Source: Minisyncoccota bacterium (lineage in GTDB: Bacteria; Patescibacteriota; Minisyncoccia; Phycocordibacterales; Phycocordibacteraceae). Taken from it: DNA of 64,000 nt. Position numbers and translations under genes: made by a program. The notes beneath the pieces are model-generated. The model worked only from the letters and a program-made list of their open reading frames with translations. It had not been told where the DNA came from and did no database searches. The stretch covers positions 442,485 to 506,484 of the forward strand of contig JAGORR010000001.1 of NCBI GenBank assembly GCA_018062765.1, given 5' to 3'. Of this stretch, positions 58,456-60,885 are shown piece after piece; position 1 is the stretch's first letter, and each line of letters opens with the position of its first letter.

Positions 58456-58746
58456 AGGATGTTCTAACCCATGCGCGAACTCACTTCGCACGCGCGTAGC
58501 GCGTGGTGGCTTGAGATTATTTCGTACGCTCCGATTCCGTGCCAATGCGAACCGCCGCCGCACGCCGCCGAGTACGGCGGCAACCCCGAAAGAAAAACGC
58601 CCTTTCCTTTTTCAAAACGCATTCCCCCCGCCAAACAAAAATGCATGGAGCGGTTTTCTTTCGGGGTTCTGCCCTCCAAGTATTCGGGCAGTGCGGCGGC
58701 GGAAATGCCATGCGGTTCGATTCAGAAAAAGGCGGTTTACAAGCCC
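58452..58746. repeat. inverted repeat IR1, left copy (295 bp, perfect reverse complement of 60886-61180)
   Basis: The ORF track shows identical pseudo-ORFs on opposite strands. Boundaries were mapped base by base. Confidence 0.9.
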
Positions 58747-60821
58747 GGCTCTTCAATTCGCAACCCAACATTGGATATCGCAGATGGTGTGTCGGATTTA
58801 ATACGCTTCACAATGTCGAATGTGTGCGCATCGTACACTTCGACTTCGTTCGCCGACTGTGAGACAACGTACACAAACTTCCCATCATAGGTAAATTCCG
58901 GATGCCACGAACTTTCACCCTTGACCGGAATAATGGTTTTTACAATTTCGTTGATACGCGCGTCGATGACGTATATCTCGTCCTTGTGGTCGCCGAACGC
59001 GGTGTCAGCCCACACGTATGGATATGAAGGATCTTTGCTGTAGCTCCGCACAAAGAGACCTGGTCCGCCAGTCTTTATATACTTCACTGGTTTCCATGTG
59101 GTTATGTCGATGACGGTGATGAGACCCTCGCCGAGAGCCGGAACGTAGATGTACTTCCCCCATGCCGCGCCCGGGCCCGTGTGCGGTGTCTCGCCGGTCT
59201 CCACTTCCGCAATTGGCTTCATTGTCACAAGATCAAGAACCCACGCCGTTTTAGAACCCTGCGATGCGACGATGTAATACGAGCCATCAGGAGTAAGAAA
59301 GCCGTCATGGAGGGCGGGTTTCCCCTCGCCAATGTCAGAGAATTTGTGCGTTACCGGAAACCCGGGTTGATCAGTGTCAATCGCCCAGACACTCGTTCCA
59401 TCCTTTAGTGCCACGACGATACGATTTCCATCTTCGACGACCGCGCCCGCCCGAGACTCGATCTGCTTGCCGTCTTTTTCCATTGTGAGCGGTATCGTTT
59501 TTAGAATCTCCATCGATATAGCATCAAGGATAACAAGATTGCCCGGCTCGTAATTGCCGATAGCAACATACTTATCGTTGTCGGTGATAGCGGTTCCCCG
59601 CGAGTTCTTACCAACCAAGACCGATACGACCGGTTCGAGAGTCGTGAGATCGATCTTCGTAAGCCAACCGTCGCGAGAAATTATGTACATATATTTCCCG
59701 TCCGACGAATAGACGGATGTGTGAGGCTGGAAGCCGACATCATGTACACGCCCGACAGCCTTGTGTGTCGTTCCGTCGATGGCGAGCAATTTCTCCGCGT
59801 CTTTCTCGACGACGAGCATGAGCTCGCGCGGATTCCATGAACCTTCATCGACATACAATTCGCGATACGGCGTGAGTGTCACGTTCTTCTCAAACGGAAC
59901 ATCCACATTCGTCACTCCAGTCCCGCTCCGTAGCTCACCAATGTAATATTTCATCATCTTGTCCCTGATGCCGTCACCGTGATTTTTGTGGTAATTCTCA
60001 CTCACGTCCTTACCGCAGTTGAACATCGCAGGATGCATGCGTGATGCTTCGGTCGCATTGAATACTTTCTTGTCGATGCTGAGCCAGCAATCCTCTGTAT
60101 TGTTGTGAAGCGCGACGTCATCAAGCGTATAGGTCGTACCTACCACTTCGGTAGTTATGCGCTTACCAATCTCTGCGGGCTTGATAATGCGATCAGCCTT
60201 TGCGTACCATGCTCCCGCGAAGATGAGTGCGAAGAAAAGAGCCGCGAGAACTGATCGTTTCAATATCGCGGCATCGTGAGGACGAGCGCTCTTTCGGCGC
60301 ACAAGCCAAGTCGCAAGCATGACAACCGCAACAGTAACCGCGTAAAGCGCCATGAATGCGAAGTAGCCGATATCGGTTCGGTAGATGACATGGTGGAACA
60401 TCAGAAATACCCAAGAGACAGCCGACACTGCTCCGCTCTCAAGAACGAATGCGTCAAGAGCAATGCTCCCATCGCGGATGTCGTGCACACGGGGCAAGTG
60501 GCGCGTAGTGAACATAATTTCATTCCCAATGAGAATCATTGCGACAGTCATGCTCGCGTAAAAAATGCCGAGCTCGACCATCGACTCATACGCAAGCGTA
60601 AAGAGGCCGAGGCCGCTGAATCCATATAAAAGAATTGCGATCCAGATCACTATGCGTGATAGCTTTAGCAAATTGAACTCGTCGCGCGATATTTTTCCGT
60701 CAGTTCCGGAAAAAAGAAAAAGTACAAAACTCAGCGCAGATGCGCCCAGACCGAGGCCGAGAGTAACCGAAAAAATGAGCAGGTACGCAGTATGCAGACC
60801 GATGTACGAGAATAATTCCAT
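58737..60821 (-). CDS. membrane-anchored cytochrome b5-like heme-binding domain + 7/8-bladed beta-propeller (YVTN/cd1-like) protein
   Basis: N-terminal ~5 TM. b5-like HNNTEDCWLSIDKKVFNATEASRMHPA...CGKDVSENYHKNHG. Repeated beta-propeller blades follow. First ATG is at 60821 and TTG at 60839. A TATAAT lies just upstream in the unique spacer. Confidence 0.7.
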   Translation of the reverse strand: MELFSYIGLHTAYLLIFSVTLGLGLGASALSFVLFLFSGTDGKISRDEFNLLKLSRIVIWIAILLYGFSGLGLFTLAYESMVELGIFYASMTVAMILIGNEIMFTTRHLPRVHDIRDGSIALDAFVLESGAVSAVSWVFLMFHHVIYRTDIGYFAFMALYAVTVAVVMLATWLVRRKSARPHDAAILKRSVLAALFFALIFAGAWYAKADRIIKPAEIGKRITTEVVGTTYTLDDVALHNNTEDCWLSIDKKVFNATEASRMHPAMFNCGKDVSENYHKNHGDGIRDKMMKYYIGELRSGTGVTNVDVPFEKNVTLTPYRELYVDEGSWNPRELMLVVEKDAEKLLAIDGTTHKAVGRVHDVGFQPHTSVYSSDGKYMYIISRDGWLTKIDLTTLEPVVSVLVGKNSRGTAITDNDKYVAIGNYEPGNLVILDAISMEILKTIPLTMEKDGKQIESRAGAVVEDGNRIVVALKDGTSVWAIDTDQPGFPVTHKFSDIGEGKPALHDGFLTPDGSYYIVASQGSKTAWVLDLVTMKPIAEVETGETPHTGPGAAWGKYIYVPALGEGLITVIDITTWKPVKYIKTGGPGLFVRSYSKDPSYPYVWADTAFGDHKDEIYVIDARINEIVKTIIPVKGESSWHPEFTYDGKFVYVVSQSANEVEVYDAHTFDIVKRIKSDTPSAISNVGLRIEEPGL

Positions 60822-60885
60822 GACTTTATCATATCTCAAATCGAAGGGAAATTATAGATAAGTGTCTATATGTATGTGGATTTGA

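Follow-up and report, generated by a model that had tools for sequence, protein, structure and literature searches.

A membrane-anchored cytochrome b5–d1 propeller protein of Patescibacteria, a possible NirS-like reductase, in a tRNA-Glu-associated serine recombinase islet

The closest described relatives of the protein considered here are NirS, NirN and NirF. NirS (PDB codes 1nir for Pseudomonas aeruginosa, 1qks and 1aof for Paracoccus pantotrophus) is a soluble periplasmic enzyme that combines an N-terminal CXXCH cytochrome c domain with an eight-blade d1 β-propeller; in the Pseudomonas aeruginosa enzyme, H182 ligates haem d1, and H327 and H369 stabilise nitrite (Schwartz et al, 2022; PMC8756737). 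NirN (6rtd), the biosynthetic dihydro-haem d1 dehydrogenase encoded in nir biosynthesis operons, also joins cytochrome c to a d1 propeller, in which both histidines are iron ligands, and NirF consists of the propeller only. Here we describe a gene, hereafter b5-d1, in a 64,000-nucleotide (nt) stretch of a Minisyncoccota genome (GenBank assembly GCA_018062765.1, contig JAGORR010000001.1, positions 442,485 to 506,484), the whole of which we call the window. Its host is a Candidatus Pacebacteria member of the candidate phyla radiation (CPR, or Patescibacteria), which accounts for a large share of bacterial diversity and is usually described as consisting of fermenters without respiratory enzymes. 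This placement follows from the DnaK encoded in the window, which is 100% identical to that of a Candidatus Pacebacteria metagenome-assembled genome. The encoded protein joins a six-helix membrane module to a cytochrome b5 domain and a d1-type propeller, and we see about an even chance that it is an extracytoplasmic, membrane-anchored, NirS-like (cd1-type) small-molecule reductase without haem c.

The open frame runs over 58737..60839 on the minus strand and comprises 700 amino acids (aa), starting at TTG 60839. Translation probably starts at the ATG at 60821, giving 694 aa, since the best 120 database relatives are almost all 694 aa long and align from residue 7. Residues are numbered in the 694-aa form (1–694) unless the 700-aa form is stated. 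The gene and its parts are located as follows.

58737..60821, minus strand: b5-d1 coding sequence, 694 aa (open reading frame (ORF) list, homologue length and Pfam domains)
60204..60821, minus strand: six-helix membrane module, aa 1-206 (hydropathy, AlphaFold helices and conservation)
59922..60137, minus strand: cytochrome b5 domain, aa 229-300 (Pfam PF00173, alignment to solved b5 structures and invariance in 64 sequences)
58752..59867, minus strand: eight-blade d1-type β-propeller, aa 319-690 (Pfam, PDB alignments, Foldseek and invariant columns)
60851..60880, minus strand: promoter-like site TCCACA-18-TATAAT (consensus scan, 10/12 matches; a consensus match only)

A sequence database search retrieved close homologues with 77–97% identity to the window protein, and more than 186 homologues share the identical domain architecture, indicating that the fusion is not due to chance. 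An exact-sequence look-up of the window protein matched no record. The names carried by its relatives in databases are 'cytochrome D1 domain-containing protein', 'YncE' and 'NirF'; an NCBIfam scan returned only sub-threshold generic propeller matches, with no NirS, NirN or NirF equivalog. Literature searches for b5-d1 fusions and for cd1-type proteins in Parcubacteria or Patescibacteria found nothing relevant.

Residues 329–685 match the Pfam family Cytochrom_D1 (PF02239) with an E-value of 2.4e-70, covering model positions 1–365 of 368. Among solved structures, the best sequence matches are, in order, P. aeruginosa NirN (3.7e-57), NirF (4.3e-41) and NirS (~1e-19). Foldseek analysis of the b5-d1 model returned the same order (E-values from 8e-31 for NirN to 1e-24, with NirS entries at about 1e-25), with all top matches being d1 propellers. 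A first-pass annotation, made from the DNA letters, had read the propeller as being of cd1 or YVTN type; the cd1 assignment stands on these matches, and the generic YVTN repeat does not.

HMMER alignment to Paracoccus pantotrophus NirS placed H367, H505 and H547 (codons 59721-59723, 59307-59309 and 59181-59183) over H200, H345 and H388, which correspond to H182, H327 and H369 of the P. aeruginosa enzyme. H367 would thus be the proximal histidine, and H505 and H547 the distal pair. All three are invariant in 64 homologues, as are D506, the aspartate that also follows the first distal histidine in NirS, and the arginines R383, R408 and R457. The histidine triad is kept even in a variant with a single transmembrane (TM) helix (L048) and in an archaeal variant (L047). 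R383 aligns with NirF R65, an arginine that a NirF structure preprint describes as common to NirF, NirN and NirS, and R408 aligns with the NirN/NirS arginine that contacts the ring-B oxo or acetate groups. R383, R408 and R457, whose counterparts are arginine contacts in NirS, are candidate tetrapyrrole contacts. Given the invariant histidine triad and these arginines, the pocket appears shaped for a d1-type haem, with a distal side that is open as in NirS.

The first distal position separates the protein from its nearest relatives: where NirS has H345, NirN has an aspartate (LDDF) and NirF a tyrosine (YDA), whereas b5-d1 has a histidine (LHDGF). This column bears on the alternative that b5-d1 is a NirN- or NirF-like tetrapyrrole handler, which would bind, modify or store a d1-type or scavenged tetrapyrrole as a dehydrogenase, chaperone or uptake receptor, its b5 domain serving as an electron sink like the cytochrome c domain of NirN. 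NirN is the best match in both sequence (28–33% identity) and fold, likewise couples an electron-carrier domain to a d1 propeller, and shares the motifs GPG(L/F)F(V/M)RS and SRxxA; moreover, some family members carry the Joint Genome Institute label 'protein NirF', and an organism without haem synthesis must take its haem from outside. The invariance of H505, shared with NirS and replaced in both NirN and NirF, speaks against a handler, which we consider distinctly unlikely. NirF, for which the preprint lists S50, E240, R340, R372 and an extended loop (226–236) as specific features, differs further in lacking a b5 domain and matches less well than NirN.

The b5 motif quoted in the first-pass annotation is present letter for letter (HNNTEDCWLSIDKKVFNATEASRMHPAMFNCGKDVSENYHKNH), and the profile search proposed there detected this domain as well as the propeller. 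Pfam Cyt-b5 (PF00173) matches residues 232–297 with an E-value of 2.2e-8 (34.4 bits against a cutoff of 23.7). In alignments to solved microsomal and bacterial cytochromes b5 (1cyo, 1cxy), HPA falls over HPGG and NHG over GHS, and both axial histidines are in register: H263 (codon 60033-60035) and H281 (codon 59979-59981) are the counterparts of His39 and His63. The tryptophan and aspartate of the core motif are also retained, whereas b5-d1 differs from these cytochromes in lacking five residues after the HP motif, in having an invariant cysteine pair and in its predicted extracytoplasmic location. H263, H281, C245 and C269 are invariant in 64 aligned family members, and the domain is predicted to carry haem b with bis-histidine ligation; the C245/C269 pair would suit an extracellular disulfide. 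Since these two cysteines (aa 251 and 275 in 700-aa numbering) are the only ones in the protein, it contains no CXXCH motif, and the Pfam scan detected no cytochrome c domain.

A longer variant of 770–790 aa (class P0081-P0120; e.g., P0097, P0103 and P0113), in contrast to classical cytochromes b5, has an additional b5-like copy upstream, in which both axial histidines are lost (FP... in place of HP...) and which is presumably haem-free. The propeller histidine triad is retained in this variant as well.

Six TM helices (aa 9-38, 46-76, 85-113, 124-145, 153-175 and 181-206) were located by hydropathy and in two AlphaFold models, one of the full-length protein (predicted local distance difference test score, pLDDT, 84.8) and one of the N-terminal 232 aa alone (pLDDT 82.7; predicted template modelling score 0.82). 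The N-terminal membrane anchoring proposed in the first-pass annotation is retained, with six helices in place of its 'about five'. Loops 1-2, 3-4 and 5-6 read as rich in lysine and arginine, which by the positive-inside rule would place the b5 and propeller domains outside the cytoplasm. The first-pass annotation also suggested a surface electron-transfer or haem-binding protein; an enzyme is more likely than a protein that only carries electrons or binds haem.

Within the membrane module, H10, H143 and H144 are nearly invariant and E48, S136, W137 and Y160 invariant. Its profile retrieved 823 cluster representatives, mostly stand-alone proteins of 175–220 aa, and the helix-1 histidine (H10 in b5-d1) is common to these relatives. 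Among ten relatives sampled, two are fused to VKOR and others to a cupredoxin, to a cytochrome c domain or to GGDEF. VKOR, cupredoxin and cytochrome c are all electron-transfer partners, which we count in favour of a reductase, and the module would act as an anchor that may also pass electrons. Matches of the relatives to CopD were weak and sub-threshold. Family members are listed as P0121-P0270 (e.g., P0165, P0214, P0171, P0176 and P0244).

Compared with NirS, b5-d1 thus shares the eight-blade propeller, the proximal and both distal histidines, an N-terminal one-electron haem domain, and an extracytoplasmic location (predicted for b5-d1). It differs in that electrons would enter through a non-covalent bis-histidine cytochrome b5, in its six-helix anchor, in the absence of the tyrosine-bearing N-terminal arm and in an overall identity of only 20–25%. 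Lacking the cytochrome c domain that defines NirS, b5-d1 is not a NirS member in the strict sense; it would represent a natural experiment in which haem c has been swapped for b5 in a cd1-type enzyme.

In a scan of one genome per species, the b5-d1 family was found in about 45 species. Nearly all carriers are labelled Paceibacterota, Parcubacteria or Patescibacteria, and the few odd automatic labels belong to CPR-sized contigs. The architecture, which the first-pass annotation had called unusual, is therefore not rare: it is a Patescibacteria-wide family. Two divergent members delimit its range. The L048 variant is only 516 aa long and has a single TM anchor. L047 (6012-11342), from a Woesearchaeota (DPANN) metagenome-assembled genome (MAG), encodes a 1776-aa surface protein that is anchored at its C terminus, has two cupredoxin domains and embeds, between other domains, a b5-D1 unit 53% identical to that of the window. 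This occurrence suggests that b5-D1 has passed between bacterial and archaeal episymbionts.

The nearest relatives outside the CPR are Chloroflexota proteins, with 36–42% identity over the propeller. One of these, L058 (639 aa), consists of cytochrome c and D1, keeps LHDGF and TPHPG, and is flanked by genes for NarH-, NarJ- and EB_dh-type nitrate reductase subunits and a NarX/L-like sensor pair; its lineage is that of the Chloroflexi NirS (Schwartz et al, 2022; PMC8756737). These proteins resemble b5-d1 in the histidine triad (LHDGF, TPHxG) and in their N-oxide gene context, but have cytochrome c domains in place of the b5 and six-helix modules and belong to free-living hosts with respiratory chains.

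To characterise the gene neighbourhoods, all ORFs within ±8 kb of b5-d1 were clustered for 46 CPR loci. Recurrent neighbours are of two kinds only: a large serine recombinase, the most frequent (10/46), and a nirK module. The copper nitrite reductase gene nirK lies within 8 kb in 8/46 loci (L010, L016, L023, L027, L028, L029, L030 and L040), and its product matches solved NirK with an E-value of 3e-103. In L027 and L029 it is co-directional and follows b5-d1 after 33–36 nt; in L010, L028 and L030 the two genes are at most 0.7 kb apart. An ArsR-type regulator accompanies b5-d1 in seven loci and a PNPOx-like protein in six, and together with nirK they form a candidate N-oxide gene cluster of Parcubacteria. 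In the examples read near b5-d1 genes, NirK is membrane-anchored. The window itself, searched for the ArsR-type regulator and the PNPOx-like partner, contains neither.

These neighbourhoods argue further against a tetrapyrrole handler: across the 46 loci there is no nirE, nirJ, nirDLGH-type or other recurrent biosynthetic neighbour of the kind that surrounds NirN, the recurrent functional neighbour is an N-oxide enzyme, and the Chloroflexota sister proteins adjoin nitrate reductase genes. The linkage to nirK instead raises the possibility of a detoxifier that removes nitric oxide (NO), whether from a neighbouring NirK or from a denitrifying host, or scavenges O2. Classical cd1 enzymes can reduce O2, no NO reductase gene was seen in the 46 neighbourhoods, and nirK lies directly downstream in two loci and near in six more. 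In addition, nirK is widespread in Parcubacteria, and CPR NirK would yield toxic NO without a known sink (Danczak et al, 2017; the b5-d1 protein is unmentioned there). On the other hand, the distal histidine pair is the nitrite-protonating pair of NirS, and most family loci, including the window, have no nirK in reach. Sites of the d1 type are not known as NO reductases. Taking both sides together, we judge a dedicated detoxifier unlikely.

The same paper states that electrons reach CPR NirK 'by an unknown means' (Danczak et al, 2017), and b5-d1 could serve mainly to donate electrons to NirK or cupredoxins or to dock them, in which case the b5 domain would do the work and the propeller would be a non-catalytic platform. 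The two cupredoxin domains joined to b5-D1 in the archaeal homologue would fit such a role, as would the fusion of the membrane module to a cupredoxin in other proteins. However, the propeller is the most conserved part of b5-d1, with haem-ligand and pocket residues all invariant, which is unexpected for a passive scaffold, and in the window the gene is alone as cargo. This alternative appears very unlikely.

For the NirS-like reductase that we favour, the inferred scheme, in its topology, direction of electron flow, substrate and cofactor, would run as follows. The six-helix module anchors the protein and may feed electrons in; from the anchor or a partner, electrons would pass one at a time to the non-covalent b5 haem b, which takes the place of the NirS cytochrome c domain, and on to the propeller tetrapyrrole, where a small molecule would be reduced, likeliest nitrite to NO. 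Nitrite is the most likely substrate, a proposal made with less confidence than that of a NirS-like reductase, given the distal histidine pair and the N-oxide company kept by the gene and its Chloroflexota cousins; NO, O2 or hydroxylamine are alternatives, and the operon link to NirK makes NO and O2 serious ones. A b5 domain plus anchor in place of haem c suits a host without a periplasm or cytochrome c maturation, and to our knowledge CPR bacteria have no cytochrome c maturation.

Several observations weigh against this assignment. Over the whole sequence, similarity is greatest to the biosynthetic dehydrogenase NirN and not to NirS, and two NirS arginines, Arg174 and Arg391 in P. pantotrophus numbering, are replaced by lysine and proline. 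The membrane module has neither a Pfam family nor a PDB fold match, which leaves its electron-feeding role a guess, and it is missing from the 516-aa variant. Genes for haem d1 biosynthesis were seen neither within ±8 kb of any of the 46 loci nor in the 64-kb window, and CPR bacteria are generally held to lack tetrapyrrole synthesis. The window contains no nirK. Where nirK is the operon partner, it already encodes a nitrite reductase, which argues against simple redundancy and favours NO or O2 as the substrate.

The d1-specific pocket contacts, in an organism not expected to make haem, constitute a cofactor puzzle, and raise the question of which tetrapyrrole occupies the haem-d1 pocket in an organism with a genome of roughly 0.64 Mb. 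A conserved, mobile NirS-like enzyme, sometimes operon-linked to NirK, would provide CPR bacteria with a further means of acting on nitrite, NO or O2, and might account for the electron supply to CPR NirK or the relief from NO, which are described as unknown in the literature (Danczak et al, 2017).

Large serine recombinases that insert at tRNA 3' ends, and serine-recombinase invertible segments, are the closest described counterparts of the DNA around b5-d1. The gene lies in an islet at the 3' end of a tRNA-Glu gene, with a G+C content of ~0.50 compared with ~0.56 outside. From left to right, the islet consists of a 16-nt repeat, a spacer, repeat A, cassette S, repeat A', repeat B, the recombinase, repeat B' and the tRNA, with the following coordinates (unstranded unless a strand is given).

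58169..58184: 16-nt direct repeat of the tRNA-Glu 3' end (ACCTCACGGGGAATCG), with a second copy at 62877-62892 (repeat search, 100% identity)
58185..58446: spacer 'U', 262 nt, with a 24-bp hairpin at 58406-58457 (repeat search; comparison with L006)
58447..58746: inverted repeat A, outer arm, 300 nt (A and A' are 99% complementary)
58453-58456: core GTGA of junction J1 (junction sequences)
58747-60885: cassette S, 2139 nt, containing the b5-d1 gene and the promoter-like site (between A and A')
60886..61185: inverted repeat A', inner arm, 300 nt (ends at J2)
61176-61179: core TCAC of junction J2 (junction sequences)
61176..61305: inverted repeat B, upstream of the recombinase, 130 nt (B and B' are 100% complementary)
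61357..62877, plus strand: large serine recombinase (Pfam Resolvase, 2e-22; Recombinase, 8e-12; Zn_ribbon_recom, 9.5e-10)
62747..62877: inverted repeat B', downstream arm (repeat search)
62874-62877: core GTGA of junction J3, the last 4 nt of tRNA-Glu (junction sequences)
62874..62946, minus strand: tRNA-Glu(CTC), the integration target (ARAGORN; Rfam tRNA, 59.3 bits)

The recombinase ORF opens at TTG 61336, its likely start is M-A-K-P-K at 61357, and it contains the catalytic-serine motif YARKST; NCBIfam gave weak CcrB and XisF matches. The part kept in relatives ends ~30 nt into B' (tblastn, residues 1-476). Other ORFs of the islet are mirror-image readings of the inverted repeats, and b5-d1 is, as the first-pass annotation stated, the only non-recombinase gene. 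Repeat A overlaps the last 10 nt of b5-d1, and the promoter-like site of the gene, 30 nt before the ATG, falls within the non-repeated part of the cassette. Repeat B contains a palindromic hairpin (61209-61241). A permissive Rfam scan of the islet detected only the tRNA, indicating that the repeats are not known RNAs.

The three junctions share a 4-nt core and can be written as flank|GTGA|A (J1), A'|TCAC|B (J2) and B'|GTGA|tRNA (J3). J2 is attP-like, since it carries both element-type half-sites, and J1 and J3, which carry one each, resemble attR and attL. This common core with exchanged half-sites was found in the window and in ten other elements. The predicted empty-site sequence is ...GGGTTTTGTGCTGTGTGTGACCTCACGGGGAATCG...; neither an empty site nor an excised circle was found. 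The repeat layout could, speculatively, arise if a circular form carrying attP twice, in inverted orientation, integrated at one of the two copies. Excision of each repeat-flanked unit on its own was considered and rejected for canonical serine-recombinase chemistry, because the cores at the unit ends are inverted and share no dinucleotide in direct orientation.

At the far edge of the islet, marked by the 16-nt repeat at 58169-58184, we estimate the probability of such a tRNA-end repeat occurring by chance in 6.5 kb at about 0.005. This repeat lies 262 nt beyond the outer junction of the element, and a serine recombinase crossover should not duplicate 16 nt, for which reason the intervening spacer U may be what is left of an earlier island of a different type; an old terminator downstream of the tRNA is the other option. 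Homology of L006 to the window ends at ~58438, spacer U is not shared with L006, and no match was found in the other loci.

The module of gene plus recombinase also occurs in L006 and L009, both at tRNA-Glu, with b5-d1 protein identities of 95% and 91% and a spacing between the A arms (2139 nt) that is identical in both. A more distant version is found in L048, at tRNA-Ser, and L049, with 37–40% identity in the recombinase and 56% in the b5-d1 protein. Taken together, the tRNA-Glu site, the lower G+C content, the 16-nt repeat, the L006 and L009 modules and the presence of a recombinase in 10/46 loci support the earlier proposal that a serine recombinase mobilises the gene. In this scheme, b5-d1 would travel as a promoter-plus-gene cassette inside a tRNA-Glu-targeting large-serine-recombinase element.

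Traces of delivery were also found apart from complete modules. L004 shows homology only to window 58738-60896, i.e., cassette S, in an unrelated context, and in L002 and L015 the b5-d1 gene directly follows tRNA-Glu with no recombinase. A tRNA lies within 500 nt in 10/45 loci, its 3' end always towards b5-d1, which fits repeated delivery of the gene next to tRNA genes. In L015 (7684-7750), ~60 nt downstream of the tRNA and after a hairpin, 19 nt repeat part of the tRNA 3' end in inverted orientation (ACCTCACGGGAATCGAAGG), perhaps as a scar left by elements of this family or as a site at which they dock.

Relative to the recombinase and tRNA, the cassette has opposite orientations in the window (58747-60885) and L006 (2634-4772), and again in L048 (7132-9430) and L049 (1961-4259). 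Comparison between these different assemblies, in which the repeats are longer than short reads, suggests that the cassette flips. Between L048 and L049, the A-S-A' block is 98.5% identical and the recombinase block only 84.7%, suggesting exchange of cassettes between backbones. Short-read MAGs can mis-set cassette orientation, as 300-nt perfect repeats exceed the read length, and the opposite orientations might be an artefact of their arbitrary resolution by assemblers. Many contigs do end exactly at the arms (e.g., the 2199-nt Logan contigs, equal to 2139 + 2 x 30). Yet the flip appears in two independent pairs, and the recombinase segment, likewise flanked by repeats, keeps one orientation in ~59/60 loci of the survey described next, which random mis-orientation would not produce. 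We therefore regard an artefact as rather improbable. Inversion as a promoter switch was rejected, since the best promoter-like site and the whole coding sequence lie inside the cassette, whose ends see identical repeats either way. A further promoter-like sequence, TTGGCA-18-AATAAT (10/12), lies inside repeat A and hence occurs twice, at 61087-61116 (plus strand) towards the recombinase and at 58516-58545 (minus strand) outwards, towards a major facilitator superfamily (MFS) gene.

To place the element among its relatives, we surveyed 80 metagenomic recombinase relatives (L089-L168; 62–88% identity, of more than 564). About 60 of the 80 have a recombinase gene bracketed by inverted repeats of 115–150 nt, mostly 98–100% identical, whose downstream arm overlaps the tRNA 3' end by 3–6 nt (Glu, Ser, Arg, Ala, Leu, Ile, Met or Lys). 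The gene points towards the tRNA in ~59/60 loci, arguing that its compartment does not flip freely. At least 20 of the 80 have a second repeat pair of 210–330 nt around 2–6 kb of cargo, and in ten elements examined the J1/J2/J3 logic holds, with the core equal to the target tRNA end and conserved half-site motifs. The layout of a repeat-bracketed recombinase, often preceded by a second cargo compartment, recurs in the window (58447-62877), L006, L009, L048, L049, L042 and L089-L168. b5-D1 is absent from all 80 surveyed relatives. Sampled sibling cargo includes a type III restriction–modification (R-M) system, a C5 cytosine methylase, a GTP cyclohydrolase II–methyltransferase fusion, an M78 peptidase and several proteins without a Pfam match, one of 976 aa (L092, L107, L117, L123 and L136, among others).

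Two groups of described systems resemble this layout. The Hin, Gin and Cin systems and the phage P1 C segment, with its ~0.6-kb inverted repeats, are serine-recombinase invertible segments; like the element, they have long inverted repeats, an adjoining serine recombinase and short outer cores, and they occur in both orientations, as the comparison of different assemblies suggests for the cassette. However, the window recombinase is a 500-aa large serine recombinase and not a small invertase, inversion swaps no coding ends or promoters because gene and promoter are both inside, and the sites also resemble the attL, attP and attR of an integrated element. The tRNA-targeting islands (SCCmec Ccr, XisF and TnpX types; tycheposons) likewise encode an enzyme with Resolvase, Recombinase and Zn-ribbon domains, insert at the tRNA 3' end and carry accessory cargo that varies, R-M systems being one example. 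Unlike these, the element encloses the recombinase gene itself within perfect 115–150-nt inverted repeats and its cargo within a second repeat-bounded compartment, with an intact attP-like site between the two. Literature searches on inverted-repeat elements of serine recombinases in CPR yielded no account of this nested layout. The tRNA-specific large serine recombinases of such elements form a compact family with att half-sites that are legible directly in the genome, and enzymes of this kind attract interest for genome engineering.

Joining the two lines of evidence, we tentatively propose, as a possibility that is doubtful in its entirety, that CPR episymbionts unable to synthesise haem run a surface 'bd1' nitrite/NO reductase, with haem b and a d1-type haem both scavenged from the host or the environment, and that they trade it as a ready-to-express cassette through an undescribed class of tRNA-targeting elements, in which recombinase and cargo each occupy their own inverted-repeat compartment around an internal attP-like site. 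If this were true, the two-compartment layout would allow both inversion and exchange of the cassette. Relative to the first-pass annotation, the present analysis adds an active site of NirS type, the distribution across CPR, the link to nirK, the question of the cofactor and the element with its nested repeats.

Elsewhere in the window, a LexA-like S24 peptidase repressor and a Y-family (DinB/UmuC-type) polymerase adjoin each other at 54278-56383 as a compact SOS-type pair, just left of the MFS transporter gene that borders the islet. An ORF of 2028 aa spans 24265-30351 on the plus strand.

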